Positions 4,356-34,570 of a DNA stretch of 34,570 bases are shown piece by piece; the stretch's first letter is position 1; the number at the start of each line of letters is the position of its first letter. Source of the DNA: Deltaproteobacteria bacterium (lineage in GTDB: Bacteria; Desulfobacterota; Desulfobacteria; Desulfobacterales; JAUVKB01); the NCBI GenBank assembly GCA_030596405.1, contig JAUVKB010000001.1, forward strand, positions 1 through 34,570, read 5' to 3'. Both the position numbers and the translations under genes were made by a program. The notes under the pieces are model-generated. The model did no database searches. It had not been told where the DNA came from and worked only from the letters and a program-made list of their open reading frames with translations.

Positions 4356-5126
4356 CTATTCCGCAACAGCAAAAGCATCCGCAAATCCGTTTTGAATCAA
4401 ATTTTTCTCATATTCGGCAATCTGTGTTAAATCCGAAGTCCTGGCCACACGCACACGGAAAAAAATTTCATCACCGCTGTAATAGGTAGTAATATGGGCA
4501 TCCCTGTATATCCGGCCGAGCTTTTGTTTCAATTTTTTGGCGTTTTTCAATTCCCTAAACGCGCCGACCTGAACGGTAAAATTTCCCGTATAATAATAAT
4601 TTGCCGGGATATCGGCGCTGTTATTGACAATATTTGTATTCACAGACCCGGCTGCGCCCAGAGCGACGATCTTAACCGGAGCAGTGCCGGGCCCGACAAT
4701 TCCGATCTTCTTTGCCGCTGTATATGAAAGATCTATTATCCTGCCGCGGACAAACGGCCCCCTGTCATTAATCCTGACTTCAACCTCCCTGTTGTTATCA
4801 AGATTTTGTACCCGCACAACAGTGCCTAAAGGCAAGGTTTTATGGGCGGCCGTCATCGCATACATATCGTAGATTTCACCGTTTGACGTTTTTCTGCCAT
4901 GAAATTTTTTGCCATACCAGGACGCTTTTCCATGCTGGCTGAAATCTTTTGCGCAAGGCAACGGCTGGTACCAGTTTTTTCCGATTTTGTAAGGCTTGGG
5001 ATATACGGCGGGACACGGGGCAGGTTTTACCCTTGAACATCCATTCCCCAAAAATACCGACAGACTAAAAGCAGCTATTATTTGACAAACAAGAAAAACC
5101 AGCCTTTTTTTGGGAATTTGGGCCAT
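4356..5126 (-). CDS. rlpA: Septal-ring lytic transglycosylase RlpA family lipoprotein with C-terminal SPOR domain
   Basis: Signal peptide with a lipobox-like FLGNGCS. The DPBB core is GKASWYGKKFHGRKTSNGEIYD...TAAHKTLPLGT...RINDRGPF. The C-terminal SPOR-like segment is FTVQVGAFRELKNAKKL. Confidence 0.85.
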   Translation of the reverse strand: MAQIPKKRLVFLVCQIIAAFSLSVFLGNGCSRVKPAPCPAVYPKPYKIGKNWYQPLPCAKDFSQHGKASWYGKKFHGRKTSNGEIYDMYAMTAAHKTLPLGTVVRVQNLDNNREVEVRINDRGPFVRGRIIDLSYTAAKKIGIVGPGTAPVKIVALGAAGSVNTNIVNNSADIPANYYYTGNFTVQVGAFRELKNAKKLKQKLGRIYRDAHITTYYSGDEIFFRVRVARTSDLTQIAEYEKNLIQNGFADAFAVAE

Positions 5127-5130
5127 AAAA

Positions 5131-7479
5131 TTATTTTCCGAGCGCTATTTCCAGGACTTCTACCATCTTGTCCACAAAGTGAAACTCGATTTTTTCCCGG
5201 ACTTTTGCCGGTATATCCTCCAGATCTTTCTCATTCCACTTCGGCAGAATAAGTGTTTTAATGCCTGCGCGATGGGCCGCAAGGACCTTTTCTTTTATTC
5301 CGCCGACAGGAAGCACCATCCCTCTTAAAGTTATCTCACCGGTCATTGCAAGATTTTTACGGATAGTTTTTTTGGTCAGAAGCGATACCAGGGCGGTAAG
5401 GATTGTAACACCGGCAGAGGGCCCGTCTTTTGGTATGGCGCCTGCCGGAACATGGATGTGTATATCTGTATCTTCAAAAAAATCTTCCCGGATGCCGAGA
5501 GAAGACGCATTTGCCCGGATGAAACTCAAAGCAGCAGTGGCGGATTCTTTCATGACATCACCAAGCTGGCCGGTTAAGGTCAGGCCCTTTTTCCCTTTCA
5601 TTGCAGTGGCTTCAATAAAAAGAAGCTCTCCTCCAAACTGCGTCCATGCAAGCCCCATAGCCACACCAGGGGTCGAAACTCTGGCGCTTTGCTCGGAAGC
5701 AAATCGAACAGGCCCAAGATATCTGGAAACATCATCGACCTTGATTGCGGCGGATTTAATAATTTCTTCTGCTATCTTGCTTGCAACACCACGACAGATG
5801 TTTGCAATTTCCCTTTCCAGATTTCTTAGCCCGGCTTCTCTGGTATAGCCGGAAATAATCCGCCTTGTCGCTCCTTTAGTAAACGATAACTGCGACCTTT
5901 TAAGGCCGTGAGCGTCAAGCTGGCGGGGGATGAGATACCGGTTTGCGATATCTATCTTTTCGTCTTCAGTATATCCTAAAAGCTGCAGCACTTCCATCCT
6001 GTCTTTTAATGCAGGCGGTATGGGATCCAGCAGGTTTGCCGTTGTTATGAAAATGACTTTAGAAAGGTCAAAAGGAACATCCAGATAGTTGTCTGAAAAA
6101 GAAAAATTTTGTTCCGGGTCAAGAACTTCAAGCAGGGCGGCTGATGGATCACCACGAAAATCGCTGCCCACCTTATCTATTTCATCCAGCATAAAAACAG
6201 GGTTGTTTGATTCAGCGCGCCGGATTCCCTGAATAATCCGTCCCGGAAGCGCTCCGATATAAGTGCGCCGATGTCCCCGGATTTCAGCCTCATCCCTTAC
6301 CCCGCCCAATGAAATACGCACGAACTTGCGCCCTAAAGAACGTGCGATGGAACGGCCCAAAGATGTTTTACCTGTCCCCGGAGGGCCTGCAAAACAGAGT
6401 ATCGGTCCCTTTGATTCGGGTTTAAGTTTGCGCACCGCGATATATTCAATGACACGTTTTTTTACTTTCTCAAGCCCAAAATGGTCTTCATCCAATACCT
6501 TTCTTACCTTTTTTATATCAAGATTATCCTTTGTGCTTTCATTCCAGGGAAGTGTCGTAAGCCAGTCGAGATAAGTTGATGCCACCGTATATTCTGCTGA
6601 AGACGGGTGCATGCGGGAAAGGCGGTTAACCTCACGTTCAGCCTCTTTAAGAGCTGTTTCGGGAAGATTTTTTTCCTTGATTTTTATTTTGTATTCTTCA
6701 ATTTCAACGGTTGTTTCATCTTTTTCACCCAGTTCTTCCCTGATTGCTTTTAGCTGCTCGCGAAGATAATATTCCCTTTGCCTTTTATCCATGTCACCCT
6801 TAACCTGGGATTGTATCTTGTTTCCCAGCTCTAGAATCTCCAGCTGATAATTAACCATTCGGGTGATCTCTTTTAATCTTTTCCTGACATCGACAAGTTC
6901 TAAAACTTTTTGCTTTTCCTCGACCGTGGAATTGATGGTGGCGGCAACCATATCGGCCAGTATGCCCGGATCTTGTATCGATTTTGCTATAGCCCCCATT
7001 TCCGGCGGCATGCCCGGAGAAAGCCCGACAATCCTTGCGAACAGATTGATCAGATTGGACATAAGCGCCTCGGTTTCCTTGCCTTTTGTTCCTATCTCCT
7101 TAATATGCTCAACACTGGCCTGCAGGTAAGGTTTTCCCTTTATAAACTCTTTTACCCTGAATCTGCCGATACCCTGGACCAGCAATTGCGCCTTGTTGTC
7201 TTCCATCTTTGCCATTTTAAAAATAAAGGCGCTGGTGCCGACTTTATGCAGATCATCATCCGGATGATCGCTTTCTTTGGCCGGCTTATCAGAAAGCATA
7301 ACACCTATGATACGATTTTTGGACATGGCCTCGTCGACCAGTTGAATAGATTCATTCTGTATTACGACAAGGGGTAATACCATTTTCGGAAAAAGAACCG
7401 CATCAAACAAGGGCAAAACAGGAAGAACCTTTGGGATCTGTCTGGTGTCAAAATCGATTGACAGCTTCTGTTCCGTCAT
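5131..7479 (-). CDS. lon: ATP-dependent Lon protease
   Basis: ATG at 7479 has GGAGG 5 nt upstream; the track ORF starts at TTG 7491. The protein has a LON N-domain, Walker [10 protein letters not shown], Walker B FMLDEIDK and the protease serine context [10 protein letters not shown]. Confidence 0.97.
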
Positions 7480-11505: not shown

Positions 11506-11669
11506 ACCAAATTAAAACATGGAGGGGCTTTTCTCAAAAAACATTATATCCCCGGTATAAAATAACGCCCAAAATTACCGCGCCCAAGAGAAGCGCGAAT
11601 ATTAATTGATCCTTATCAAACTTTTTCATGCCATAAAAATTCACACCATAAAGATTCACGACACAAAGA

Positions 11670-12887
11670 CTATTTTTTATCCAGTTCGAATGCCGAGTGA
11701 AGGACACGAACCGCAAGTTCAGTATATTTTTCTTCGATAACGCAAGATATTCTGATTTCTGATGTGCTGATCAGCCTGATATTTATATTTTCATCGGCCA
11801 GTGCGGCAAACATTTTTGCAGCGACCCCTGAATGGCTTTTCATGCCGACACCGGTAACGGATATCTTTGCGATATTTTCGGCAGACAATACTTCTTCTGC
11901 ATTTATCTCTTGCGCCACTTTGCTGGATATTTCCAGCGCTGCTTTAAAGTCTGTTTTAGGAACGGTGAATGTAAGATCTGTTTGCCCGCCGGAACGGGTA
12001 TTTTGGATTATCATATCAACATGAATGCCCGCTTCTGCAATGGGGGAGAACAGCTTTGCTGAGATTCCCGGCTGATCAGGAACTTTTTTCAGAGTGATTC
12101 GCGCTTCATCTTTGTTACAGGTTACACCGGATACGACAGGACTTTCCATGCTGGAATCTTCGTTTACAACCATAGTGCCCTCCTTCTCATAAAATGATGA
12201 CCTCACATGCACAGGGACGTTATATTTTTTTGCAAATTCAACCGAACGAATTTGAAGAACTTTTGCGCCGAGACTTGACATTTCAAGCATTTCATCAAAT
12301 GAAATTTTGTCCAGCTTCCTTGCTTTTTTGCAGATGTTCGGATCCGCGGTATAAATTCCATCCACGTCGGTATATATTTCACATACATCCGCTTTAAGCG
12401 CATGTGCTATTGCCACGGCGGACGTGTCCGACCCACCTCGACCAAGTGTCGTAATGTTACCTTCGGCGTCCCATCCCTGAAACCCTGCTATCACGACGAT
12501 GTTACGTTTATCAATCAGCTCCCTGACACGGTTAGCGCCTATTTTAACAATTCGGGCGTAACCGAAATTTGGATCGGTAACAATTTCCGCCTGAAATCCA
12601 AGTAATGATACAGCAGGGTAATTCATGGCTTTTAATGTCATTGATAAAAGAGCTACGGTTGTCTGTTCTCCTGTCGCAAGCAAGACATCGAGCTCACGTT
12701 TTTCAGGAGAGTCGGTCACTTCCCTTGCCAGCCCGATCAGATTGTCAGTAGTGCCTGCCATGGCTGAAAGGATGACGACCACATCGTTACCCTGATCAAA
12801 TGTCTTTGCAACCCGCCTGGCCACAATGCGGATACGCTCGACATCAGCAACCGAAGTTCCACCGTATTTTTGAACAATTAAACCCAT
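11670..12887 (-). CDS. lysC: Aspartate kinase
   Basis: ATG at 12887 is preceded by AAGGAG. The N-terminus is MGLIVQKYGGTSV. The protein has an amino-acid kinase domain and two C-terminal ACT-like repeats, 405 aa in total. Confidence 0.95.
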   Translation of the reverse strand: MGLIVQKYGGTSVADVERIRIVARRVAKTFDQGNDVVVILSAMAGTTDNLIGLAREVTDSPEKRELDVLLATGEQTTVALLSMTLKAMNYPAVSLLGFQAEIVTDPNFGYARIVKIGANRVRELIDKRNIVVIAGFQGWDAEGNITTLGRGGSDTSAVAIAHALKADVCEIYTDVDGIYTADPNICKKARKLDKISFDEMLEMSSLGAKVLQIRSVEFAKKYNVPVHVRSSFYEKEGTMVVNEDSSMESPVVSGVTCNKDEARITLKKVPDQPGISAKLFSPIAEAGIHVDMIIQNTRSGGQTDLTFTVPKTDFKAALEISSKVAQEINAEEVLSAENIAKISVTGVGMKSHSGVAAKMFAALADENINIRLISTSEIRISCVIEEKYTELAVRVLHSAFELDKK

Positions 12888-12968
12888 CTTATCTCCTTCA
12901 TACATCGTCAAATCGTCAATTAAAAAATGTTTAAATTAACGATTTTGTAAAAAATGTGACATGCCACT

Positions 12969-14664: not shown

Positions 14665-16957
14665 TTTTACCCTTTCCATTGACCAAAGCCGGGTTTTCCG
14701 AATATTCGATGCGGTGGTGATATATTCCGTTTAATATTTTGTTAAAATTTTTTGCAATATTATGCAGGTCTTTTAATGTCAGTTCACAATCGTCAAGCTG
14801 GCCGTCGGAAAAAATTTTGTTGATTAAATTTTGTACAAGCGCCTGAATTTTTGCCGGCGTTGGAGTGTCAAGCGTTCTTGACGCTGCTTCAACCGAGTCC
14901 GCCAGCATGACAAGACCGGCCTCTTTAGTCTGGGGTTTTGGCCCGGGATACCTGAAGTCGTCGATTTTTACCGCATCTTTTCCTTTTAACTGTTTTGCCT
15001 TCTCATAGAAAAATCTGATGAGGCTTGTTCCGTGGTGTTGCATAATCGCCTCGGTTATGGTCTGGCCCAATTTATTTTTCCTTGCCATTTCAGCCCCGTT
15101 CTTTACGTGTGAAATAAGTATAAGAGCGGACATGGAAGGCGCAAGTTTGTCATGCTTGTTTTTGCCGTTACTCTGGTTTTCAATAAAATATAACGGCTTA
15201 TTGATTTTGCCGATATCGTGATAATAACCGCATACTTTAGCCAGCAAAGGATTTGCGCCTATTTCAGATGCTGCGGCTTCAACCATTGACCCGACAATAA
15301 CAGAATGATTATAGGTTCCCGGAGCCTCTATCATAAGTCTGCGGAGTATCGGTTGATCAAGATTCGCAAGTTCAAGGAGCTTTATATCGGTTGTGTAACC
15401 AAAGGTAATTTCTACAAGTGGCGCGATACCGGATGTTACGATTCCTGCGACAATGCCTCCCAGAAACGCAAAAGACCAGTCCCACAAAAGTTTAACTCCG
15501 GAAAAATTAACCACATAGACATCTATTGATGTCGCAAGTATCATGTTCAGCAATCCGAGCTTCAGGCCCGCCTTGATAAATACTTTTCGTTCCCGGCAAT
15601 TCTGCATCCAGTAGGCGGCCATCGTGCTGTTTATAAGGAAATAGATAAAAACCTCAAACCTGTTCTCAAAAATAATCGCTGTGCAGGCTGCCATTATCAG
15701 GGCAAAAGGAACGGCAAGGTTAATTCCCAGGAAGAGACAGATGGTCATGGCGCTTGAAGCCAATGGAATCCCAAAACCCATTGATGCGGCGGGTATGGAA
15801 AACGGTGTGTTTTGATCCAGTGATTTAAACATGTACGCTGATATTTCGGCAACAAGAAAAAACGCAACAAGGACACTTGCCATAAAAAGGATATTCTTGT
15901 TGAGGTCGCGTGTAATGTTGTTTTGATGCATTATGTGCAGGTTATATGTCATGATAAGAAGACAAAAGATTATCATCGCCGCACCGATGCTGCTTACGGA
16001 TATTTCTTCTTTTGCCGTCTGGACATGTAATGCCTGCAGCTTTAAAAGCTGTACCTGGGTTACCCTTTCCCCTTCCCGCAGGAGCATCTCGCCGGCTTTG
16101 ATTTTGTAAAGAACCGGTTTGATTTCAGAAGAAGCCTTTTTTTTACGTTCTCCGGTTTCGTGTATGTTTAAAGTAATATTGGGCTGAATAAGTCTTTGAG
16201 CAAAATCAACGATCAGATTTAACAACGTATAATTAACATTCTTAAGGTATGGCTGGCCGACAATTCTGACCATGGTTTTGGCCTGGTCAAGGCTGTAGTA
16301 GGCTTTTAAGTTATGAACGATTTTTTCCGTCTTTGTCCCTACATTCCTTAAAATTATCCCTTTATCCGATTCCTTAAGGAGGGCCTCTTTATTTGCGACC
16401 ACACCGTTTTGCAATATATCAGTTAAAAGTCTAATGATAAGACTTGATATGTCATCAGAAAATTTTTCGTCTGCCAGTATTTTATAAGCGCCCTGACTAA
16501 CTGATATTCCGAGTATTTTTTCAAAGCCCTCCTTTTCCCGCAAAATCTGGTTATATGCGGATTGTTGCTTCGATGATGTTTTGTTCTGGTTTTCCGTTAT
16601 AAGTTTGTAATTTTTACGAAGATAGGCAAATGATTCTTTTGTCTGTTTTCTTAATTCCGGCAAAAGAACCAAATTATAATCGTAAACCGTCAAAACTTCA
16701 TCAACCGCCTGCCTGCGATTCCCTTCAGTCGCGTTTTTGTCCTCGATAAAAAAGTCTTTTGGCGCTTTTATGTCTCTTTCAGCAACATCTCCTAAATGGT
16801 AAGGATGTCCGGTGACCACGAGATTAGGATAGAGAAAGATGGTAAAAATTATGGTAACGCCGGCCAAAATAACCCAGTGGATGTAATTGCTGGAGGCGAA
16901 AAAAGTAGCGATAGATTTTTTTGTTTTTTTAACGCTCATTTTATTAATATCAACCAT
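14564..16957 (-). CDS. 7TM-receptor HD-domain phosphohydrolase (PgpH/YqfF family)
   Basis: One N-terminal TM helix, an extracytoplasmic domain, a block of about 7 TM helices, and an HD domain (HSVIVGSM ... YYHDIGK). The gene order HD then ybeY is the classical arrangement. The start is uncertain (ATG 16957 or 16939; the track ORF starts at TTG 16963). Confidence 0.9.
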   Translation of the reverse strand: MVDINKMSVKKTKKSIATFFASSNYIHWVILAGVTIIFTIFLYPNLVVTGHPYHLGDVAERDIKAPKDFFIEDKNATEGNRRQAVDEVLTVYDYNLVLLPELRKQTKESFAYLRKNYKLITENQNKTSSKQQSAYNQILREKEGFEKILGISVSQGAYKILADEKFSDDISSLIIRLLTDILQNGVVANKEALLKESDKGIILRNVGTKTEKIVHNLKAYYSLDQAKTMVRIVGQPYLKNVNYTLLNLIVDFAQRLIQPNITLNIHETGERKKKASSEIKPVLYKIKAGEMLLREGERVTQVQLLKLQALHVQTAKEEISVSSIGAAMIIFCLLIMTYNLHIMHQNNITRDLNKNILFMASVLVAFFLVAEISAYMFKSLDQNTPFSIPAASMGFGIPLASSAMTICLFLGINLAVPFALIMAACTAIIFENRFEVFIYFLINSTMAAYWMQNCRERKVFIKAGLKLGLLNMILATSIDVYVVNFSGVKLLWDWSFAFLGGIVAGIVTSGIAPLVEITFGYTTDIKLLELANLDQPILRRLMIEAPGTYNHSVIVGSMVEAAASEIGANPLLAKVCGYYHDIGKINKPLYFIENQSNGKNKHDKLAPSMSALILISHVKNGAEMARKNKLGQTITEAIMQHHGTSLIRFFYEKAKQLKGKDAVKIDDFRYPGPKPQTKEAGLVMLADSVEAASRTLDTPTPAKIQALVQNLINKIFSDGQLDDCELTLKDLHNIAKNFNKILNGIYHHRIEYSENPALVNGKGKNGSPDKQQAKPIQDIPGKDGKRGSNNFKRLGLS

Positions 16958-21916: not shown

Positions 21917-22570
21917 CTAAAATAACAACAAGAGACCGCAAGCCTCTTGATTCTGCTTGACGGTTCCCCCAAAAAGACCGGCAATATTTTCTAACCTCGA
22001 CCATTTTTCCGATGAAGATATGTTCTGGAAAAATTCGGTTTTGTCTGCAAAATTTCCATCACATGAGAGTTGGACACCAATTTTGTCTTCCGTTTTACTA
22101 AGGTGAATATCTATCCGCCCTCCTTCAGACATCAAATCCAGGCAGCATTCAAAACATGCCAACAATCCCATCTGTAGATGAACCGGATTTGTTTCAACAG
22201 CAATGGCTTGATCCGGGGGGTGAAGCTTTAAAACAACGTTTTTTAACCTGGCAAATCGCTGTGATAAATCGACCAGCACTTCAACTGTTTCATAAAGGTC
22301 GATTTTTGATGTGGTTTCGTCCGTGCTATGGGCGAATTTGTTAAGGCGGGATGTCAATTCCACTCCCCGTTGAATCTGTTCCTTTATGACGGACAGGGCT
22401 TTTTTTATTTTTTCCTCATGAGGGAGAGGCGCCTCTTGCAGCATAAACATCAGATCTTCCATAAGACCGGAAGATTCTTTTATGATCGCCAGAACATTTT
22501 TCATTTCATGGGTAACGCCCGCAGTTATTTTTCCAAAAAATGCGATTTCTTTATAATCTGATTCTTTCAT
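21917..22570 (-). CDS. Soluble histidine-kinase-like protein with H-box but degenerate ATP-binding domain
   Basis: The H-box GVTHEMKNVLAII resembles that of the adjacent kinase (GVAHEINNPMAII). The region where the N, G1 and G2 boxes should lie reads LLACFECCLD / SCDGNF / no GxGLGL. Confidence 0.65.
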   Translation of the reverse strand: MKESDYKEIAFFGKITAGVTHEMKNVLAIIKESSGLMEDLMFMLQEAPLPHEEKIKKALSVIKEQIQRGVELTSRLNKFAHSTDETTSKIDLYETVEVLVDLSQRFARLKNVVLKLHPPDQAIAVETNPVHLQMGLLACFECCLDLMSEGGRIDIHLSKTEDKIGVQLSCDGNFADKTEFFQNISSSEKWSRLENIAGLFGGTVKQNQEACGLLLLF

Positions 22571-22968: not shown

Positions 22969-24699
22969 TTATCCCCCCTGTTCATTTTTGGGTTTTTTCA
23001 GCAAATAAACTGTAAAGGTCGTGCCCTCTCTTTCCTGGCTCTGCACCTTGAAATCCCCGCCTAGTTTTTTTACAATTCCATAGGTGATAGGAAGCCCCAG
23101 ACCGGTGCCGGTCCCCTTTTTGGTCGTAAAAAAAGGTTCAAATATATGATGGAGAACATCTTCCGACATACCGCATCCATTATCCCTGATAGAGACACCA
23201 ACAGTATCGGCATCGTTATCCCATGTTGTGATAGTAATCTGTCCGCCATCTTCCACAGCGGCAAAAGCATTCGTGAGGATATTAAGGAAAACCTGTTGGA
23301 GTTGCCCCCTGTCTGAAGATATATGGGGCAAATCATCCGCAAGGTTGATGTTTAGATTGATTTTTCGATACAAGGCTTCCCTTTCAAGAAAGCCGATCAC
23401 CTCTTTAATGATTTTATTCAGATCCAACACCTCAAAAAGCACTTCTAAACGGCGTGCAAAACCCAACAGGCGATGGGTAATAGTTTTGCAACGTTCAACT
23501 GATTGAATAATCGATTCCGTCAGCTCAAGCAGCTTCGCTTTTTTTTTGAAATCCGGAGTAAATTCGACTATATCCTTCATTAAGCCGGCTTTTTCATTGA
23601 TTATGGCCATTGGGTTGTTAATTTCATGGGCTACGCCGGCGGCCAGTCTTCCGATGGATGAAAGCTTGTGGCTGTGTTCCAGCTCCCTGAGGGCCGACTC
23701 CCGCTTTTCAACAGCTTCTCGAATCTGTCTGACCAATATACCTGTAAGCTTGATAATTACTAAAATAATCACCACAATGCTGACGATAAAGATAAAGAAC
23801 ATTTTGTTTTTAAGCGTATACCACGACTTTAAAACAACGGAATGTGGTTTGATTGCAACCAGTGTATAATCATACTCCATAAAATGGTTGTAGGCCAAAA
23901 ACACATCAACCCCACGAGGATCTTTTGTTTCTATCACGCTGGTTCCGCTGTGTTTTGTCTGGGGAATTAAAAAGGGGCAATGTTCCAGTATTTTCCCGTA
24001 AAATTTAGAGTTGGTCTGAAAAATGCCTTCCCGGTTTATTAAGAAGGCATCACTTTTTGGGTCAAGTTCCATGGAAGAAATAAGATTGTCAAATCTGTAA
24101 GTATCGATTGTGGCGCGCAGTGTCCAGGCCTTGTCTCTTGCCGATAAATGCTGAGCGGCAACAGCAATGTGGGGAAACTTGCGGTATCCCATAAAAACGT
24201 CACTGACATATTCACCCCTTAACTGGGCCTCCTGAAACCAGCTCTGCTCGGAATAGTTTTTTCCCAAAAGTTCATAAGGGCCGCAATAACTTACCTGTAT
24301 GCCGTGGTCATCAATCACTCCCAAATCGACAAACCCACCGAATTCCTTTTTTAAAACCAGCAAAATATGACTCAGCGTCTTAGTATTCGACAACTCCTCA
24401 AAACGATAAGCAGATGCGATGAATTTTACGGTAGAGAGCCGTTCTTCCAATAAAAGTTCAAAGGAATGCCTTGTCTTGTCCGACATTATACGTAAGGGGT
24501 TGATCGTTTCGTTTTTAAGCTCTGTCTGATATTGATGATAATTAATGGCTGCCATGACAGTAATGGGAACAATAGTCACCACGATCATTAATACAATCAT
24601 ATTTCTGCGAAGTTTATGGCGGCGAATTGGAGAGATATTTTCATCATTGTAATACAATAAGCCTCTGGTTAAAGTGCTTATCCATTTATTAATACCCAT
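22969..24699 (-). CDS. Sensor histidine kinase with periplasmic Cache-type domain
   Basis: Two TM helices flank a ~250-aa Cache-like domain. H-box AAGVAHEINNPMAI, N-box NILTNAFAA, G1 DNGCGM, and G2 GTGLGLPI. Confidence 0.92.
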   Translation of the reverse strand: MGINKWISTLTRGLLYYNDENISPIRRHKLRRNMIVLMIVVTIVPITVMAAINYHQYQTELKNETINPLRIMSDKTRHSFELLLEERLSTVKFIASAYRFEELSNTKTLSHILLVLKKEFGGFVDLGVIDDHGIQVSYCGPYELLGKNYSEQSWFQEAQLRGEYVSDVFMGYRKFPHIAVAAQHLSARDKAWTLRATIDTYRFDNLISSMELDPKSDAFLINREGIFQTNSKFYGKILEHCPFLIPQTKHSGTSVIETKDPRGVDVFLAYNHFMEYDYTLVAIKPHSVVLKSWYTLKNKMFFIFIVSIVVIILVIIKLTGILVRQIREAVEKRESALRELEHSHKLSSIGRLAAGVAHEINNPMAIINEKAGLMKDIVEFTPDFKKKAKLLELTESIIQSVERCKTITHRLLGFARRLEVLFEVLDLNKIIKEVIGFLEREALYRKINLNINLADDLPHISSDRGQLQQVFLNILTNAFAAVEDGGQITITTWDNDADTVGVSIRDNGCGMSEDVLHHIFEPFFTTKKGTGTGLGLPITYGIVKKLGGDFKVQSQEREGTTFTVYLLKKPKNEQGG

Positions 24700-24723: not shown

Positions 24724-25533
24724 TTATAGGCAGATTCCATATTGTTTTGTTTTAACAACGGATTCTTTGAGATACTGAAAAACACCGGCCCCTTCTTTAG
24801 AAGCTTTTTCCTTTCCCATGACGACCAGGTTAACAAAATTTATTTTCTCTTTGTTTAAACTGCTGATCTGTTCATCAATGAGCTTTATGGTATTGCTGAA
24901 TGTGCTGTAAACAACAAAGGGACCGAACAAGATTTCTCCGTCCTTTTTTTTGGTTAACGCGCCGATAACATTTTGATCCGGCAGTTTAAAGACTTTTGGC
25001 GGAGAAATATATCCAAGCAGCTCGGCAAAAAGGGCAAGGGATTCTATTACGCCGTCTTTATTCCCTATTTCCAGAGCTGTTGCCGCGTCTTTTTCGATTT
25101 CATCCATGTCAGACTCGTCAAAGGAAAGGTCGAGCATGTCGATACATTCTTTTTGGATAATTTTGACGGTCTCTTCTTTTTTGCTGATAATAACATCAGC
25201 ATCGTTTAATATTTTAATTATATTTCGCACGCTCAGCATTTCTTTGACCGAGGGGCTTTTTCGCAGCCCGATATCTTCCGCCGAGGTGTTGTAAATGGCA
25301 AGATCATTATCGAGCACCAGAATCTTTTCCTTACCGGAATTATCTTTCATAATGTAAAGATCAAGATCCCGCTCCCGCCTAAACATGCAAGAGCGCATTT
25401 CAAGGAGCAACCGCATTGTTTTTTTGTCAACCTTATGGGTGCCGTCAACAGGAGAGATATCGATAGACTTTAACACCTTACTGGCCAACCGGTCTATCGT
25501 AATTTTTTTTAAAAGATTTTTTTTAAACGTCAT
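24724..25533 (-). CDS. Hypothetical cytoplasmic protein (269 aa), first gene of the two-component operon
   Basis: Long ORF with ATG 25533 and AAGGGGA upstream. It ends 24 nt before the kinase start. No TM segment was seen and no motif was recognised. Confidence 0.6.
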   Translation of the reverse strand: MTFKKNLLKKITIDRLASKVLKSIDISPVDGTHKVDKKTMRLLLEMRSCMFRRERDLDLYIMKDNSGKEKILVLDNDLAIYNTSAEDIGLRKSPSVKEMLSVRNIIKILNDADVIISKKEETVKIIQKECIDMLDLSFDESDMDEIEKDAATALEIGNKDGVIESLALFAELLGYISPPKVFKLPDQNVIGALTKKKDGEILFGPFVVYSTFSNTIKLIDEQISSLNKEKINFVNLVVMGKEKASKEGAGVFQYLKESVVKTKQYGICL

Positions 25534-26121: not shown

Positions 26122-27495
26122 TTACCCGTAAGTTTTTAGTTTTCTTCTAAGGGTGTTTATTCCTATATCCAAAAGTCTGGCTGTTTGAGATTTATTTCTT
26201 CCTGTTTGATCATATGTCTTGAGAATATACGATTTTTCAACGTCAGCCAGAGAAACTATACTATTTATTTCTTTTTGATACTGTTTGTCCGGTATAGTTT
26301 TTTTTGTTTTTTTAATCCGCATTTGCCCTGGAAGAAAATTTGCGGTTATAATTTTTCCTTGAGCCAGATTTACGGCAGACTGAATAATTGCCTTTAGTTC
26401 CCTGATATTCCCGGGATAATCGTAATCCATAAGTAAAGACATGGCTTGCTCTTCAACAAAGCAACTACCGGAATTACCGGAAAACTCCTTTAAAAATTTA
26501 TTTATCAACAACGGTATGTCATTTTTTCTCTCCCGGAGGGGCGGAAGGTGGAGCCACCCCCCTCTGAGACGGTAATATAGATCCTTGCGAAACATCTTTT
26601 TGTCCATCAATATATCAAGGTCTTCATTCGTGGCTGCAATAAAGCGGATATCAACTTTTTGCTGCGCGCTGTTCCCTAACTTGATATATTCTCCGGACTG
26701 GAGGACCCGAAGCAATTTTCCTTGAAGTTCGGGTGACAGGTTGCCGATTTCATCCAAAAAGACTGTTCCCTGGTTTGTGTATTCAAGGTGGCCGGAACGA
26801 TTTTTGTCCGCACCTGTAAAAGCACCCTTTGTATGGCCGAAAAACTCGGCATCAAAAAGATTGCCGGCTATAGAAGCCATGTTGATCGGAGTAAACGGAA
26901 ATTTTGATCTTGCGCTTACAGTGTGAATAGCCCTGGCCAAAAGTTCCTTGCCGGTGCCGCTTTCTCCTGTAATTAAAACAGGGACATCACTTAGAGCGTG
27001 CAGTTCTGTTTCCTTCAATATCTTAAGGATCTTATGCGATCTTGTTATAATAGGTTTAAATGCTTTTACATTTATTAATTTCGGCAGGGTCTTCTTTTTT
27101 TCAATATCAAGAATATCGAGCAGCCGTTTCCTTTCCATAGACCGGTTAATTGCCGAAAGCAGGTCTTCTTTAGAAACAGGCTTGACAAGATAATCATATG
27201 CTCCTTTTTTTAAGCATTCCACCGCGGTCCTGGCTTCATTCACAGCGGTTACCATTATACACTCGGTGTTGGGACTGGTGTTTTTTATTATCTCAAGGAG
27301 TTTGATCCCATCCATACCGGGCATTGTCATATCGATCAGGGCAATATCAAAAATTTCGTCTTGCTCAAAAATTAAAGCAGCCTTTACAGGATCATCCTCA
27401 AGTACGATGTTTTTATATCCTGTTTCGGTCAATTTTATTTTTAATATTTCAAGAAAATCGAGGTCGTCGTCAATAATTATAATATTACCGGTCAT
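26122..27495 (-). CDS. Sigma-54-dependent response regulator (NtrC family: receiver, AAA+, Fis-type HTH)
   Basis: Receiver domain with IALIDMTMPGMDG. AAA+ domain with GESGTGKELLARAIH and the sigma-54 contact loop GAFTGA. C-terminal HTH QTARLLDIGINTLRRKLKTYG. Confidence 0.95.
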   Translation of the reverse strand: MTGNIIIIDDDLDFLEILKIKLTETGYKNIVLEDDPVKAALIFEQDEIFDIALIDMTMPGMDGIKLLEIIKNTSPNTECIMVTAVNEARTAVECLKKGAYDYLVKPVSKEDLLSAINRSMERKRLLDILDIEKKKTLPKLINVKAFKPIITRSHKILKILKETELHALSDVPVLITGESGTGKELLARAIHTVSARSKFPFTPINMASIAGNLFDAEFFGHTKGAFTGADKNRSGHLEYTNQGTVFLDEIGNLSPELQGKLLRVLQSGEYIKLGNSAQQKVDIRFIAATNEDLDILMDKKMFRKDLYYRLRGGWLHLPPLRERKNDIPLLINKFLKEFSGNSGSCFVEEQAMSLLMDYDYPGNIRELKAIIQSAVNLAQGKIITANFLPGQMRIKKTKKTIPDKQYQKEINSIVSLADVEKSYILKTYDQTGRNKSQTARLLDIGINTLRRKLKTYG

Positions 27496-27823: not shown

Positions 27824-27839
27824 TGGCACGCTGCTTGCT
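27824..27839 (+). promoter_or_regulatory. Sigma-54 (-24/-12) promoter
   Basis: TGGCACGCTGCTTGCT matches TGGCAC-N5-TTGCW at every conserved position. It lies 84 nt upstream of ATG 27923 and is divergent from a sigma-54 activator gene. Confidence 0.85.
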
Positions 27840-27922: not shown

Positions 27923-28798
27923 ATGGATTTAAAAAACAAATTTAACGCAGGGGAATTTGTCATTCTGGCGGAGATTGAGCCTCCCAAGGGTGTGGATATA
28001 TCCACGATGGTAACCAACGCCACAATGGTAAAAGGAAAAGCGGATGCATTGCTGGTGCCGGAAATGAGCAACGCGGTTATGCGGATGAGCGCACTCGGCG
28101 GCGCTATGATCCTCCAGGGCAAAGTGATGGAAACGGTGATGCAGGTTAACTGCCGGGACAGGAATCGATTGGCTTTGCAGGCTGATTTGCTGGCAGCATC
28201 CGCATGCGGCATAACCGGTATCATGGCTGTAACAGGAGAAGATCCGAGTTTCGGAGACCACCAGCAGGCCAAGGCGGTATATGACATTGACCTGCCGGAG
28301 CTGCTTGATTCCATTCATAAGCTTCAACAAGGTCGGGATATGGCTGGAATTGATCTTTGCGGTTCTCCACAATTTCTGGTTGGTTCTACGGTTAATCCTG
28401 GGCTCAAGGGGATGGCGCTTGAGCTTGAACTTACAGAAATGAAAAAAAAGATTGATGCCGGGGTTGAATTTTTAATAATGCCGCCTCTGTTTGATCTTGA
28501 TTCCATTGAGCCGTTTTTAAAGATGGTTGATCACCGGAAGACGCATATCATTCCCACGGTATTACTGCTTAAATCAGTGGGGATGGCCCGATATATTGAT
28601 CGTAATATGGATCATGTGCATGTCTCGGCACAGCTTATAAAAAGATTGCAAAAAGCGCCGGACAAAGTGCGCGAATGCATAAAAATCGCATCTGAAATGG
28701 TTTCTGTTTTAAAACGGGAAGGGTTCAGCGGAGTCCTTCTTTCCACCATAGGCTGGGAAGACAGGCTCGCTGAAATTATTGATGGGAGCAAGGGATAA
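27923..28798 (+). CDS. Methylenetetrahydrofolate reductase family protein (MetF-like paralogue 1)
   Basis: 291 aa. The N-terminus [14 protein letters not shown] is an acetogen-type MetF opening, and the rest has a TIM-barrel-like pattern ([12 protein letters not shown]..., [21 protein letters not shown]). AAGGAA lies 8 nt before the ATG. Confidence 0.8.
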
Positions 28799-28838
28799 GC
28801 CGCAAACTATATTTATGCAACACAAAAACGGGGTACTG

Positions 28839-31800
28839 ATGAGCCAAAACCAGGAAAAAAAATACATGGAAAAAGATAAAGATTTTGTCGGCTCGGTTAT
28901 GGTAGTGGGAGGAGGAATTGCAGGTATGCAGTCGGCTCTCGATCTTGCCAGTTCCGGTTATTACGTCTATCTTTTAGAAAAATCGTCTGCCATTGGCGGG
29001 ATGATGTCCCAGTTGGACAAAACCTTTCCGACCAATGATTGCGCCATGTGAGTGATTTCGCCCAAACTGGTCGAGGTCGGCCGGCACCTGAATATAGAGC
29101 TTTTAACCGATACGGAAATTCTTAACCTTAAAGGCGATCCGGGACGTTTTACCGCCCTGGTAAGTCAAAAACCGCGTTTTGTAGATCTTTCCAAATGCAC
29201 AAGTTGCGGAGAATGTGTCAAGGTTTGTCCGGTTTCACTTCCAGACGGATACGATCAGGGGCTTTCCGAACGAAAAGCAGTCTACAAACAATACCCCCAG
29301 GCAATTCCTGGTGCTTTTGCCATCACTAAAAGGTCAACCGCACCGTGCAAGGCCACCTGCCCTGCCCATGTGAGTATCCAGGGCTACATAGCCTTGATCA
29401 ATGACGGTCGCTATGAAGAGGCTCTGAAACTTTTTAAGGAAGAACACCCGTTTCCCGGGGTTTGCGGCAGGGTCTGCCATCATCCCTGCGAAGATGTTTG
29501 TACCCGCAATGATTTGGATCAGCCTATTGCAATTCAACATCTCCACAGATTTCTGGCGGATTATGATTTTACCAGCGAAGATCCGTATGTACCGGAAACA
29601 GGGGAAATACGGGAGGAAAAAATTGCCATTATAGGCACTGGCCCGGCAGGTCTGACAACCGCATATTTTCTGGCGAGAAAGGGTTACCTCGTTACGATTT
29701 TCGAAAAACTTCCGGTTACAGGCGGCATGATGAGGGTTGGCATCCCTGAATATCGTCTTCCCGAAAATATCTTGAATGCTGAAATTTCAACAATCGAAAA
29801 AATGGGAGTTTCGATAAAAACCGGCGTTGAATTCGGCAGGGATATTACGATGAAAAGCCTTAAGCAAGACGGATTTAAGGCTCTGTTTTTGGCTATCGGG
29901 CTTCACGGCAGCCGTAAACTGGGAGTAGCTGGTGAAGATCTGGAAAATATTCTACCAGGAGTTGCTTTTTTAAGGGATGTATCTTTGGGTAAAAATGTAA
30001 AGATAGGGAAAAAGGTAGTTGTTGTAGGCGGTGGAAATGTGGCTATTGACGTATCCCTTACAGCGAAACGTCTTGGCGTTGACAAGGTGACTATGGTCTG
30101 CCTTGAATCACGGGAGGAAATGCCTGCCTGGGATTATGAGGTTGAAGAGGCTATAGAGGAAAATATTGAAATACTCAACTGTTTTGGCCCAAAGTGTTTT
30201 AACGGAAAAGATGAAAAAATCACATCTGTTGATTTTAAGCAATGCATATCTGTTTTTGATGAAAACCGGCGTTTTAATCCGCAGTATGATGAAAACATAG
30301 TTCAAACATTAAAAGCCGACACCTTGATTGTCGCCATAGGCCAGATGGGAGAATTCGACTTTGCCGAAGATGAAGATATTGCTCTATCTCCCCAAGGCGG
30401 ACTTGAAGCGGATCCTTTAACTTTTCAGACACCTATTTCCTGGATCTTTGCCGGCGGTGATGCGGTTTACGGACCCAAATCGGTTGTGGACGCGGTTGCG
30501 TGCGGAAAGGAAGTGGCAGAAAGTATAGACCGATATCTTAACAACCAGGATTTAAAAAAGGACAGGATAAAGGAGTGGCCCTATGAAAAGCCGGATATAA
30601 CCGGTGAGTGCGGCAAGGAAAGAAATCTGTTGCATTATCTTCCTGTTGAACAGCGGGAAGGAAATTTCATGGAAATTGCCTCGGGGTATAATGAAAAAAA
30701 TGCCTTAAAGGAAGCGGACAGGTGTTTAAATTGCGGTATTTGCAGCGAATGTTATCAATGTGTGGATGCGTGCCTGGCCGAAGCAATTGATCACAGCCAA
30801 AAGCTTGTAGAAAAAGAAATCAAAGTCGGTTCGCTTATTCTTTGCCCCGGCAGTGAGCCGTTTGACCCTACAATATTCCAGGAATTTTATCTTTACAAGA
30901 AAAACCCCAATGTGCTTACAAGCCTGGAATTTGAACGGATTTTAAGCGCATCCGGCCCCACCATGGGACATCTTGTCAAGATGTCGGACAAAACCGAACC
31001 TAAAAAAATAGCCTGGCTCCAGTGTGTCGGTTCCAGGGATACAAACCGGTGCGGCAACGGTTACTGTTCTTCTGTTTGCTGCATGTATGCGGTGAAAGAA
31101 GCGATGATCGCAAAAGAGCATGCAGCCGGTGGCCTCGATTGTGCTATTTTTAATATGGATATGCGTACATTCGGCAAAGATTATGAAAAATATTATTTAA
31201 GAGCTAAAAATGATGCCGGGGTCCGTTTTGTCAAAGCGCGGATACATACCATAGACGAAATTAAAGAGACCGGCGAATTGAACCTGCAATACGTGGATGA
31301 GGCTGGAAAAATTATTCAGGAGCGTTTCGACATGGTGGTTCTTTCCGTGGGTCTTGCTATCTCGGAGTCTACCGCCGAACTGGCCGGACGTCTTGAGGTG
31401 GAGCTCGATAAATACAAATTTGCAGTTTCAGAACCGTTTATGCCGGTTCAAACATCACGCCCCGGTGTTTATGCCTGCGGAGTATTTCAGGGCCCCAAAG
31501 ACATTCCGACTTCGGTGATTGAAGCAAGCGCTGCGGCCGGAGCTGTTGGATCTCTTTTAGCGGATGTACGCGATACCCTTACTAAAAGCGTAGAAATTCC
31601 CGAAGAAATTGATATCGCCGGGCAAGAACCGAGGATAGGAGTTTTTGTGTGTAAATGCGGGATTAATATTGCCGGGGTTGTGGATGTGGATGCAGTGGAA
31701 GAATACGCAAAAACCCTGCCCAACGTGGAGTATGTCGGTCAAAACCTTTTTACATGTTCCCAGGATACCCAGGAGCAGATGAAAGAGGTTATTATCGAAC

Positions 31801-33296
31801 AGAAGCTTAACCGGATTGTGGTTGCGTCATGCACTCCCAAGACCCATGAGGGTATTTTTATGGATACCCTGCAGGCTTGCGGGCTCAATAAATACCTTTT
31901 TGAAATGGCCAATATCAGAAACCAGGATTCATGGATTCATTCAGATATGCCTGAAAAGGCCACTGAAAAAGCTAAAAAACTTGTCAAGATGGCGGTTGCA
32001 CGCGTTGCCACACTCTATCCGCTCCATGAAAAAATAATTCCGGTTACCCGGCGTGCCTTGATTATCGGCGGCGGTGTGGCAGGCATGAATGCTGCTCTTG
32101 CTCTTGGAGACCAGGGGTTTGAAGTTGTTCTGGTGGAAAAAGAGACCAAACTTGGAGGTCTTGCAAACCGGCTGACCACTACCATTGAAGGAGCCGATAT
32201 CGGAGAATACCTGGATGATCTGACCCATAAAATTACTAACCATCCGAAAATCCAGGTGCTGGTTCAGTCTCTTATCGTCGGATTTGAAGGGTTCAAGGGT
32301 AATTTTACCACAGAAGTGCTGGTGGGGCCGGGAATGTATGAAAGAAAGATCGATCATGGGGTTATTATTTTGGCAACAGGCGCAAATGAATATCAGCCCA
32401 ATGAATTTTTATACGGCCACGACCGCCGCGTTATGACACAGATAGAACTGTCGGAGCATCTGGAAAATAATGACACAAAAAGTCTTGACCAGGTTGTCAT
32501 GATTCAGTGCGTTGGCTCTCGAAATGATGATAACCCGAACTGCTCGAGAATTTGCTGCCAGAGCGCGGTTAAAAATGCGATCCATATAAAGGAGGATAAC
32601 CCTGAAACAAATGTTTATATTTTGTACCGCGACATCAGGATGTACGGTCTTTTGGAAGAATACTACACCATGGCCAGACGTTTGGGAGTTATCTTTTTTA
32701 GATACACGCTGGATGATCCGCCGCAAGTGAAGTCTTCTGAGGACGGGGTTGAAGTGACTTTCAAAGATCATGTCCTTGGAAAACGGCTTGTTGTTTCCGC
32801 AGATCTTCTGGCACTCAGTGTAGGAATGCGCGCCGAAGATACAGAAGAACTTGCTTCCATAATAAAACTTGCCCGTAATCCGGAAGGGCATTTTATTGAA
32901 GCTCACGTAAAGCTGAGACCTGTGGATATGTCTACGGAAGGTATTTTTGTATGCGGAACCGCACACAGCCCCTTGTTGATTTCCGAATCGATATCCCAGG
33001 CATTTGCCGCCGCATCAAGGGCATCCACATTTTTATCTCAACCGCACCTTACCCTGTCGGCTGTAACGGCCAAGGTTGAAGAAGAAAAGTGCGCAGCCTG
33101 TCTTGTTTGCGTCAGATCTTGTCCGTACGGCGTGCCTGTAATAAATGACAAAGGTGTTAGTGAAATAGACCAGGCCCTGTGCCACGGGTGCGGCGTTTGT
33201 GCATCTGAATGTCCGGCCAAGGCTATTGAATTAAACTGGTACGAGGATGATCAAATATTGTGCGAGGTTGAGGCCTTGCTTGAGGGGGTTTTATGA
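28839..33296 (+). CDS. hdrA: Giant HdrA-family flavoprotein (HdrL-type) with selenocysteine at UGA 29049-29051, an inserted GltD/NfnB-like NAD(P)H module and a second HdrA-like module
   Basis: The frame is open from 28779 to 33296 except for TGA at 29049. The start is ATG 28839 (alternatives 28815 and 28866). Motifs in order: (1) [13 protein letters not shown]; (2) [19 protein letters not shown]; (3) GltD-like CPAH...[20 protein letters not shown] and [12 protein letters not shown]; (4) [13 protein letters not shown]; (5) CVGSRD...[10 protein letters not shown]; (6) [12 protein letters not shown]; (7) [14 protein letters not shown]; (8) CVGSRN...CSRICCQSA; (9) terminal 2x[4Fe-4S] [12 protein letters not shown] / [12 protein letters not shown]. 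Confidence 0.85.
29067..29084 (+). other. Candidate bacterial SECIS hairpin for the hdrA UGA
   Basis: CUGGUCG-AGGU-CGGCCGG forms a 7-bp stem with two G.U pairs and a GGU-containing tetraloop. It starts 15 nt after the UGA. Confidence 0.5.
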
Positions 33297-33721
33297 GTAG
33301 TTTTGATCCTGTAATTATAGCGTTTTGCTGCAATTTCTGAGGTTACACTGCCGCGGACCTGGCAGGTTCCATGAGATTGAAATACCCGGCAAGCATCAAA
33401 ATTGTCAGGATTCCATGCACTGGAAAGGTTGATATTCTCCATATTCTGCGCGCCTTTGAAATGGGGGCGGACGGGGTCTATGCGGTTGGATGCATGGAAG
33501 GTGATTGTCATTACGACAGCGGTAATTTCTGGGCACGCAAACGAGTGGAGCAGGCCCGGAAAATTTTAGATACAATCGGTATCGGAGGTGAAAGGGTGCA
33601 GATGTATAATCTGTCCGCCGGAGAGGGGCCCCTCTTTGCAGAATATGCGGTGGAAATGCATGAAAAAATATTAAAATTGGGGCCTAACCCGTTAAAACTC
33701 GCAAAAAAGAAGGCTGCCTGA
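33293..33721 (+). CDS. mvhD: MvhD-like (methyl-viologen-reducing hydrogenase delta subunit family) [2Fe-2S] protein with selenocysteine at UGA 33338-33340
   Basis: ATG at 33293 overlaps the hdrA stop (ATGA) and has GAGGGGG upstream. Translation gives [47 protein letters not shown]. This restores the conserved MvhD N-terminus (CCNxC...AG.DLAG). The track ORF from ATG 33371 lacks it. Confidence 0.82.
33345..33369 (+). other. Candidate SECIS hairpin for the mvhD UGA
   Basis: Two alternative folds are possible. One is GGACCU-GGC-AGGUUC (33355-33369, 6 bp, starting 14 nt after the UGA). The other is CUGCC-GCGGACCU-GGCAG (33348-33365), extendable by A45-U67 and C46-G66 with A47 bulged. Confidence 0.4.
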
Positions 33722-33796: not shown

Positions 33797-34465
33797 ATGA
33801 TTGTTGCTGATAAAAAACCTATTGAAGAGATTATTGGGGAGATTAAAGATTATACCACCATCCTTATCCTGGGCTGCAACGAGTGTGTCACGGTCTGCGA
33901 AGCCGGAGGTAAAAAAGAGGTGGGAATTCTGGCGTCAGCCTTGAGGATGTATTTTCTAAACCAGGGGAAAGATGTGACAATAGACGAAAGGACCCTGGAG
34001 CGGCAATGCGACCACGAATATCTGGAAGAGATCCGTGATGTGGCTGACCAATATGACGCCATAGTATCGCTTGCATGCGGTGTGGGAGTGCAATTTACAG
34101 CGGAAAAATACCATGCCGTACCGGTTATACCCGGAGTCAATACATGTTTCTTGGGCGCCACGGAAACAAGAGGCCTCTGGACTGAAAGATGTCAGGCCTG
34201 CGGCGAGTGTATTCTGGCGCGGACAGGCGGAATTTGTCCGGTTTCCAGATGTGCCAAAAGGATTTTAAACGGTCCCTGCGGCGGAGCGAGCAACGGCAAA
34301 TGCGAAATCAATAAGGAGCTTGACTGTGCCTGGCAGTTGATTATCGACAGATTAAAGGCACTGGGGAGGCTCGATGATTATGAAAATATAAGTCCCATTA
34401 AAGACTGGTCAACCGATCGGGCCGGCGGGCCTCGAAGAGTTGTGAGGGAGGACGTGCAGCTATGA
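33797..34465 (+). CDS. metV: Methylenetetrahydrofolate reductase C-terminal-domain protein (MetV-type Cys-rich subunit)
   Basis: Cys clusters are GCNECVTVCEAGG and CQACGECILARTGGICPVSRCAKRILNGPCGG..NGKCE, the MTHFR_C signature. AAAGGGG lies upstream of the ATG. Confidence 0.82.
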   Translation: MIVADKKPIEEIIGEIKDYTTILILGCNECVTVCEAGGKKEVGILASALRMYFLNQGKDVTIDERTLERQCDHEYLEEIRDVADQYDAIVSLACGVGVQFTAEKYHAVPVIPGVNTCFLGATETRGLWTERCQACGECILARTGGICPVSRCAKRILNGPCGGASNGKCEINKELDCAWQLIIDRLKALGRLDDYENISPIKDWSTDRAGGPRRVVREDVQL

Positions 34466-34570
34466 ATGTAAAGACACCAAGCAGACTGGAAAAAGTTCTT
34501 TCCGCTGGCCTACTTGCCGTAACATCGGAATGTGGCCCGCCTCGCGGTAGTGATCCTGAAGTTATCACTA
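34462..34570 (+). CDS. metF: Methylenetetrahydrofolate reductase (MetF paralogue 2), 5' fragment truncated by the window end
   Basis: The ATG overlaps the metV stop (ATGA), and GAGGGAGGA lies upstream. MNVKTPSRLEKVLSAGLLAVTSECGPPRGSDPEV matches the acetogen-type MetF N-terminus (E-x-x-PP-[KR]-G). Confidence 0.72.
   Translation, partial: MNVKTPSRLEKVLSAGLLAVTSECGPPRGSDPEVIT

Follow-up and report, generated by a model that had tools for sequence, protein, structure and literature searches.

Does the in-frame UGA at nt 29049–29051 of contig JAUVKB010000001.1 (assembly GCA_030596405.1), from a deltaproteobacterium of the Desulfobacterales, end one gene and precede another, or is it a selenocysteine (Sec) codon inside a single gene? 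The stretch analyzed, positions 1 to 34,570 of the forward strand of this contig, is referred to below as the window. On its plus strand, the open reading frames (ORFs) 28779–29051 and 29052–33296 lay in the same frame, and TGA 29049–29051 was the sole break between them, as had been stated in a preliminary description made from the letters of the window; the read-through peptide quoted there was reproduced by translation. Reading through the TGA gave one gene, designated here as hdrL, whose protein would be approximately 1,485 aa long if started at ATG 28839 and 1,476 aa long if started at ATG 28866. The comparisons described below argue, with a probability of roughly 94%, that this UGA is decoded as Sec and that a hairpin at 29067–29084 is a bacterial Sec insertion sequence (SECIS) element, located within one long hdrL mRNA. 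The features concerned were as follows.

28839–33296, plus strand: full hdrL-type gene read through the UGA, delimited by translation, Pfam and NCBIfam domains, and PDB alignments of both modules to HdrA 5odc
29040–29042, plus strand: Cys codon TGC of the C-x-x-U motif (DCAMU), read from the sequence; an invariant Cys in the Sec and Cys groups of homologues alike
29049–29051, plus strand: putative Sec codon UGA, residue 71 (from ATG 28839) or 62 (from ATG 28866), aligned with Cys197 of 5odc_A
29067–29084, plus strand: candidate SECIS hairpin with stem 29067–29073 paired to 29078–29084 (7 bp) and loop AGGU at 29074–29077, identified by its fold and by its invariance in TGA genes
33294–33296, plus strand: hdrL stop codon TGA, identified by translation

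The start of hdrL was not settled between the two ATG codons, as relatives carry 8 to 25 residues ahead of the segment GSVMVVGGG. The upstream ORF piece held the FAD (flavin adenine dinucleotide)-binding GxGxxG of the first HdrA module, in agreement with the preliminary description. Its further statement that the downstream piece lacks this fold was correct only for the dinucleotide-binding motif of module 1, because the downstream piece contained two more GxGxxG motifs, one in a GltD-like module and one in a second HdrA module. The expectation that gene callers would split or truncate such a gene proved right: 119 of the 120 best database homologues (65% to 98% identity) had their first residue no earlier than the codon after the TGA, at (V/M)ISPKL or farther on, and the window gene's own entry at NCBI (P0126) appeared to be a truncated call of 1,414 aa. 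The lone full-length protein among these 120 (P0036) read ...FPTNDCALCIISPKL across the site.

To place the codon among its relatives, 80 related loci were taken from a collection with one genome per species, and the site could be scored at 73 of them. The codon was TGA in 46 and TGC or TGT in 27, all in genomes of different species, and the peptide was conserved on either side, with (A/T/S)M before the codon and (V/I)ISPKLVE after it. By its codons, this distribution is that of a classic Sec/Cys pair. No homologue among the 73 scored loci showed a real gene boundary at this site. Alignment with Cys-containing HdrA homologues, the check proposed in the preliminary description, placed the UGA on Cys197 of Methanothermococcus thermolithotrophicus HdrA (5odc_A, E = 1.2e-48), with DCAMU facing DCSIC, and an equivalent Cys was present at the aligned site in the solved HdrA proteins 8rvu, 8rvv, 9sfi, and 7bkb. 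Five solved proteins and the 27 Cys loci carry a Cys at the UGA position, as the preliminary description had it for this conserved HdrA segment. In HdrA of Methanococcus maripaludis, Sec197 has been seen in a cryo-electron microscopy map at the same position (PMC13518236), and the earlier remark that Sec-containing HdrA is a known selenoprotein family agrees with published reports (PMC13188914, PMC2702500, PMC5109826, and PMC13518236). By analogy with the Cys-Sec pair in M. maripaludis HdrA and the equivalent Cys59-Cys62 disulfide in BamE, a subunit of a benzoyl-CoA reductase described below, the Cys encoded at 29040–29042 is likely the redox partner of the Sec.

One genome of the set, that of Desulforhabdus sp. 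TSK (locus L065), had two copies of the motif, a TGA-type copy at 6166 and a TGT-type copy at 16310, approximately 10 kb downstream at the edge of the fetched stretch. These copies may be a Sec/Cys paralogue pair comparable to Vhu/Vhc in Methanococcus.

The 7-bp hairpin with an AGGU loop that had been proposed at 29067–29084 was found there, beginning 15 nt past the UGA. Its sequence, CUGGUCG-AGGU-CGGCCGG, included two G.U pairs among the seven, had a minimum free energy (MFE) of -9.1 kcal/mol when folded alone, and coincided exactly with codons +6 to +11 (CTG GTC GAG GTC GGC CGG). These 18 nt were identical at every base, the six third positions included, in 47/47 TGA genes (46 loci plus the window). 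By comparison, all 30 flanking codons examined that had synonymous alternatives, between positions -14 and +23, used at least two codons in the same group, so that invariant codons amounted to 6/6 in the hairpin versus 0/30 in the flanks (Fisher p ~5e-7), and the 300 nt beyond the hairpin had a mean identity of only 68%. In the Cys genes, 27 distinct 18-mers were observed in 27 genes at the hairpin position, each of the six codons being represented by at least two different codons, and the stem was mostly broken, with a mean of 5.0 of the 7 pairs kept and a mean MFE of -3.2 versus -9.1 kcal/mol. Since the hairpin is invariant in TGA genes and variable in Cys genes, the constraint on it is one on the RNA and goes with the UGA.

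Criteria for bacterial SECIS elements, as quoted in PMC13188914, comprise a loop of 3–9 nt, an upper stem of 4–16 bp, a G in loop positions 1–2, a spacing of 16–37 nt between UGA and loop, and an MFE of -7.5 kcal/mol or lower. The hairpin passed all of these, possessing a 4-nt loop (AGGU) with a G at position 2 followed by another G, a stem of 7 bp, 22 nt between the UGA and the loop, and the MFE given above. The element also dictates the residues encoded, as seen at codons +9 to +11: KLVEVGRH was specified by all TGA genes, and Cys genes had V, A or C at the position of the second Val (VE[VAC]G) and more variation at the codons beyond. Elsewhere in the window, a near-copy of the SECIS 18-mer, TTGGTCGAGGTGGGTCGG, with 3 mismatches, was located at nt 12428–12445 of the minus strand inside an aspartate kinase gene (11670–12911); it was judged to be a chance match because the aspartate kinase ORF is intact.

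A second UGA with the same properties was present in the next gene, mvhD, as listed here.

33293–33721, plus strand: mvhD (FlpD/VhuD family, approximately 142 aa), identified by Pfam FlpD and NCBIfam VhuD (E = 2.8e-53); its ATG overlaps the hdrL stop
33338–33340, plus strand: putative second Sec codon UGA, residue 16 of MvhD, in FCCNF-U-GYTAADLAG with a C-x-x-U motif
33353–33369, plus strand: invariant block past the mvhD UGA, a candidate SECIS containing the hairpin GGACCU-GGC-AGGUUC (33355–33369)

In the ORF list of the window, mvhD appeared only as a truncated ORF of 116 aa (33371–33721). In the window and 42 related loci its codon was TGA; another 12 loci had TGC or TGT. Codons +5 to +9 (GCG GAC CTG GCA GGT, nt 33353–33367) showed no variation in 43/43 TGA genes, in contrast to the 12 Cys genes, in which they varied. 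HdrL and MvhD states were paired at 53 loci, giving 37 Sec/Sec, 10 Cys/Cys, 6 Cys/Sec, and 0 Sec/Cys; this asymmetry suggests that the two selenocysteines may be gained or lost in a set order. With two Sec-type genes in one operon, the organism of the window very likely decodes UGA as Sec. A scan of the window for further long ORF pairs split by TGA revealed none that was convincing besides hdrL, mvhD being under the size filter of the scan and spotted by eye.

Insertion of Sec through a SECIS element within the coding sequence, together with SelB, is an established bacterial mechanism. During translation of hdrL, the hairpin 15 nt past the UGA would act as such an element, and we infer that it recruits the SelB-GTP-Sec-tRNA(Sec) complex to the ribosome, whereupon the UGA would be read as Sec and not as a stop. 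The predicted product is a single flavo-iron-sulfur protein of approximately 1,485 aa with Sec in the C-x-x-U (DCAMU) of a thioredoxin-reductase-like FAD domain in the first HdrA module, the residue corresponding to Cys197/Sec197 of methanogen HdrA.

Several observations weigh against decoding as Sec by means of this hairpin. Neither selA, selB, and selD (Pfam scan of the remaining 26 ORFs) nor a tRNA-Sec (tRNA scan) was found in the 34.6-kb window. The fold of nt 29049–29110, the stretch named earlier for SECIS prediction, was no better than that of shuffled sequence (z = +0.84; 157 of 200 shuffles folded at least as well), and no match to Rfam was obtained with the whole window at the gathering threshold or with 28990–29160 at E values up to 10. 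Neither the hdrL nor the mvhD hairpin beat shuffled sequence, and single-sequence folding is therefore useless as evidence here; as the fold of the single sequence is unremarkable, the meaning of the hairpin was settled by comparison with relatives. This comparison has a limit of its own, because an invariant hairpin shows no compensatory covariation to prove the pairing, which we infer, and conservation at synonymous sites reveals a constraint on the nucleotides and not the structure behind it. The mvhD mini-hairpin alone had only -5.3 kcal/mol, weaker than the -7.5 kcal/mol asked for in the criteria. Finally, the case for Sec in hdrL stands at the level of sequence and not of protein.

Other explanations of the TGA have to be set beside these points. 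Were it a true stop, an N-terminal peptide of approximately 70 aa carrying the FAD motif would be made, and translational coupling would allow a restart at the adjacent GTG, giving a second protein of 1,414 aa. GTG, which can serve as a start, does indeed follow the TGA in the window and at 19 of the 46 TGA loci, and the databases annotate the gene in this manner, as do the gene callers for all but one of the best homologues. However, the next codon is ATT or ATC, both poor starts, at 10 of the 46 loci, and the break would fall inside the Rossmann FAD fold of module 1, splitting a motif that runs uninterrupted through every solved HdrA structure. Moreover, the position is a plain Cys in 27 orthologues, the homologous residue of M. 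maripaludis HdrA is an inserted Sec, and two separate genes would have no need for an invariant 18-nt hairpin confined to the TGA group. A split gene is thus highly improbable.

Read-through without Sec, either by near-cognate insertion of Cys or Trp or under a reassigned code, would be in keeping with the Sec machinery not being found in the window. A reassigned code was rejected, since TGA was the ordinary stop of 6 of the 28 Pfam-supported genes in the window, including hdrL, mvhD, and metV, and the code is thus standard. Simple leakiness would leave unexplained why a SECIS-type hairpin is conserved only in TGA genes, and relatives within the clade encode selA, selB, selD, and tRNA-Sec (PMC2702500) or selA, selB, and selD (PMC5109826); this explanation is accordingly rated as very unlikely. 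The window appears to be a metagenome-assembled contig, of a kind in which errors can occur, and the TGA might also be put down to faulty sequencing or assembly, or else to an inactivating mutation in a pseudogene. Yet 46 independent genomes, with only ~68% nucleotide identity nearby, shared the TGA at this codon, the frame was fully conserved on either side, and mvhD carried a second TGA of the same properties. Such comparative data effectively refute error or decay as the cause, for which the remaining chance appears vanishingly small.

With the UGA taken as a Sec codon, the predicted HdrL protein was divided as follows, residues being counted from ATG 28839.

Residues 1 to ~165, then ~640–850: HdrA module 1, comprising the thioredoxin-reductase-like FAD domain with DCAMU, then the start of an inserted ferredoxin domain
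Residues ~166–554: GltD/NfnB-like NAD(P)H/FAD module (Fer4_20 plus Pyr_redox_2), inserted in module 1
Residues ~870–1485: HdrA module 2, comprising an N-terminal Fe-S domain, a second FAD domain, and a C-terminal two-cluster ferredoxin domain

By its predicted domains, the gene product is of the HdrL type, as defined in Desulfobacterium autotrophicum (PMC2702500), with two fused HdrA modules and an inserted GltD-like module, and is not a plain HdrA; the fusion of HdrA to a GltD-like NAD(P)H module was accompanied by an mvhD gene starting at the hdrL stop, as in this architecture. The GltD-like module scored 547 bits with NF009410, over the cut-off of 516 bits. The scores with NF040770 (CoB-CoM heterodisulfide reductase HdrA2; 929 bits versus a cut-off of 1,100) and NF041778 (HdrA; 701 bits versus 1,400) stayed below these NCBI curated cut-offs, so the protein is HdrA-like and not a heterodisulfide reductase equivalog. 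In the alignments with 5odc, module 1 possessed the C-x-x-U motif and lacked the HdrA N-terminal domain; module 2 aligned from residue 2 and had LTTTIEGAD in place of the Cys197 motif. One module with the N-terminal Fe-S domain and the other with the Cys197 motif is the arrangement of a fused double HdrA (concept from PMC9012536). As the N-terminal Fe-S domain is confined to module 2 and the motif to module 1, the pair of modules probably functions as an internal pseudo-dimer.

The genes around hdrL and mvhD bear on what the protein may do, and were the following.

22969–24699, minus strand: Cache-domain histidine kinase gene, upstream of the operon
26122–27495, minus strand: gene for an NtrC-type sigma-54 activator, upstream of the operon
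27923–28798, plus strand: gene of the methylenetetrahydrofolate reductase (MTHFR) family, first of the operon (Pfam PF02219, E = 1.3e-24)
33797–34465, plus strand: metV-like gene (MTHFR C-terminal, zinc-ribbon protein; Pfam PF12225, E = 1.1e-37)
34462–34570, plus strand: start of a second MTHFR gene (metF), translated as MNVKTPSRLEKVLSAGLLAVTSECGPPRG..., overlapping the metV stop by ATGA and running off the end of the window

The gene order of the operon was metF-hdrL-mvhD-metV-metF, an hdrA-type gene, mvhD, metV, and metF thus being clustered in the window. The second metF start at nt 34462 gives the operon two MTHFR-family genes, as in Desulfonema magnum (locus L057), in which two MTHFR-family genes were located at 4757–5626 and 11532–12467, with a 311-aa MTHFR at the second metF position. 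The gene order in D. magnum was the same and was followed by a response regulator gene and by HdrC-like (Fer4_17) and HdrB-like (CCG) genes approximately 1.4 kb past metF. Neither hdrB nor hdrC was found as far as the window reaches, its end falling within metF.

The sequence TGGCACGCTGCTTGCT at nt 27824–27839 of the plus strand, approximately 84 nt upstream of the first operon gene, agreed perfectly with the sigma-54 promoter consensus TGGCAC-N5-TTGCT. No other exact match occurred in the window, where 0.04 would be expected by chance. Together with the genes for the NtrC-type activator and the histidine kinase, this consensus suggests that the operon may be sigma-54-regulated by the nearby two-component system. 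Two minus-strand ORFs adjoining the genes of this system, 24724–25533 (269 aa) and 21917–22570 (217 aa), had no Pfam match.

The neighboring mvhD, metV, and pair of MTHFR genes, together with the NAD(P)H module of GltD type inserted in HdrL, suggest that the protein may be the electron-bifurcating or -confurcating core of a methylene-tetrahydrofolate reductase complex of the Moorella type. As to the Sec itself, the role of HdrA residue 197 is debated in recent structural papers on flavin-based electron bifurcation. It has been described as a ligand of the [4Fe-4S] cluster in the N-terminal domain of the partner HdrA (PMC9012536), and also as a member of a redox-active Cys-Sec or Cys-Cys pair lying between this cluster and the bifurcating FAD, the latter for Sec197 of M. 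maripaludis (PMC13518236) and for Cys59-Cys62 of BamE (bioRxiv 10.64898/2026.04.10.717634). It is conceivable, and is put forward here only tentatively, that in HdrL the Sec of module 1 contacts the N-terminal [4Fe-4S] cluster of module 2 within one polypeptide, either ligating it as a selenolate or forming a selenenylsulfide switch in the low-potential branch of bifurcation. If so, with the Sec of MvhD, the reduction or oxidation of methylene-tetrahydrofolate in many complete-oxidizing sulfate reducers would depend on selenium at two points, and the lack of any locus with HdrL-Sec and MvhD-Cys among the 53 would reflect an ordered and functionally linked gain or loss of both selenocysteines.

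As a 2009 study had already described Sec-containing HdrA, HdrL, and MvhD from D. autotrophicum, hdrL represents another, mis-annotated, member of a known family, and nothing here alters existing knowledge in kind. What is added is the scale of mis-annotation in the databases, the invariance of the candidate SECIS across 47 genes, the putative Sec of mvhD, and the HdrL/MvhD asymmetry. A very common gene of the Desulfobacterales is truncated in almost every entry, with loss of the FAD-binding start and of the presumed catalytic Sec, and mvhD is cut likewise. Correct gene models are needed for counts of selenoproteomes and for metabolic reconstructions of marine sulfate reducers using the Wood-Ljungdahl pathway. 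The lineage also offers natural Sec/Cys variants at the debated residue, some genomes having both copies.

One of the closest known systems is that of D. autotrophicum HRM2, for which Sec-containing HdrL1/HdrL3, HdrA, and MvhD as well as selA, selB, selC, and selD have been described (Strittmatter et al. 2009, PMC2702500). Like HdrL1/HdrL3 of this member of the Desulfobacteraceae, the product of the window gene is predicted to be large, soluble, and HdrA-like, to contain Sec and an inserted NAD(P)H-binding module of the glutamate synthase type, and to be encoded next to an mvhD that may itself specify Sec; the likeness to HdrL1, HdrL2, and HdrL3 is one of architecture and description and does not single out a particular paralogue. 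Unlike hdrL1, which adjoins dsrABC (PMC2702500), the window gene is located between MTHFR/metV genes. In related bacteria, Sec-HdrA and Sec-MvhD with SECIS elements are known from Desulfococcus multivorans (PMC5109826), HdrA and the MvhD-family FrhD are the two most abundant selenoprotein families of the Olavius symbionts (PMC1976440), and Sec-HdrA with the motif C-x-x-U and MvhD/VhuD are listed selenoprotein families (PMC13188914).

HdrA of M. maripaludis (Sec197) and M. thermolithotrophicus (Cys197) shares with the window protein the C-x-x-U/C motif, the FAD domain, and the aligned residue. However, the archaeal protein is a single HdrA of ~650 aa that forms a homodimer and reduces the heterodisulfide of coenzymes M and B (CoM-S-S-CoB), whereas the window protein fuses two HdrA modules with complementary features and contains an inserted GltD-like module; and archaeal SECIS elements are located in untranslated regions (PMC13188914), unlike the candidate element of the window, which lies within the coding sequence.

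The MetFV-HdrABC-MvhD complex of Moorella is similar in having hdrA-like, mvhD, metV, and metF genes in one cluster (PMC9012536, PMC5736913), and its HdrA is likewise a fusion of two modules, one lacking the N-terminal domain and the other lacking Cys197 (PMC9012536). The window cluster differs in an extra MTHFR-family gene at its head and in its two putative selenocysteines, with no hdrBC within the window; at a Moorellaceae locus of the set (L078), MvhD has Cys, unlike the MvhD of the window with its predicted Sec. Similarity also extends to BamE of the Geobacter metallireducens class II benzoyl-CoA reductase, a fused HdrA dimer with the bifurcating FAD and Cys59-Cys62 in its N-terminal module (bioRxiv 10.64898/2026.04.10.717634): residue numbers 59 and 62 equal those of the window C-x-x-U if ATG 28866 is the start, a likeness drawn from description. 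BamF, an MvhD-like adaptor with Sec19 next to a [2Fe-2S] cluster, likewise resembles the window MvhD with its putative Sec16. The partner modules in the Bam system, unlike those of the window, are the tungsten-containing BamBC and BamGHI, and the BamE position is occupied by Cys, not Sec.

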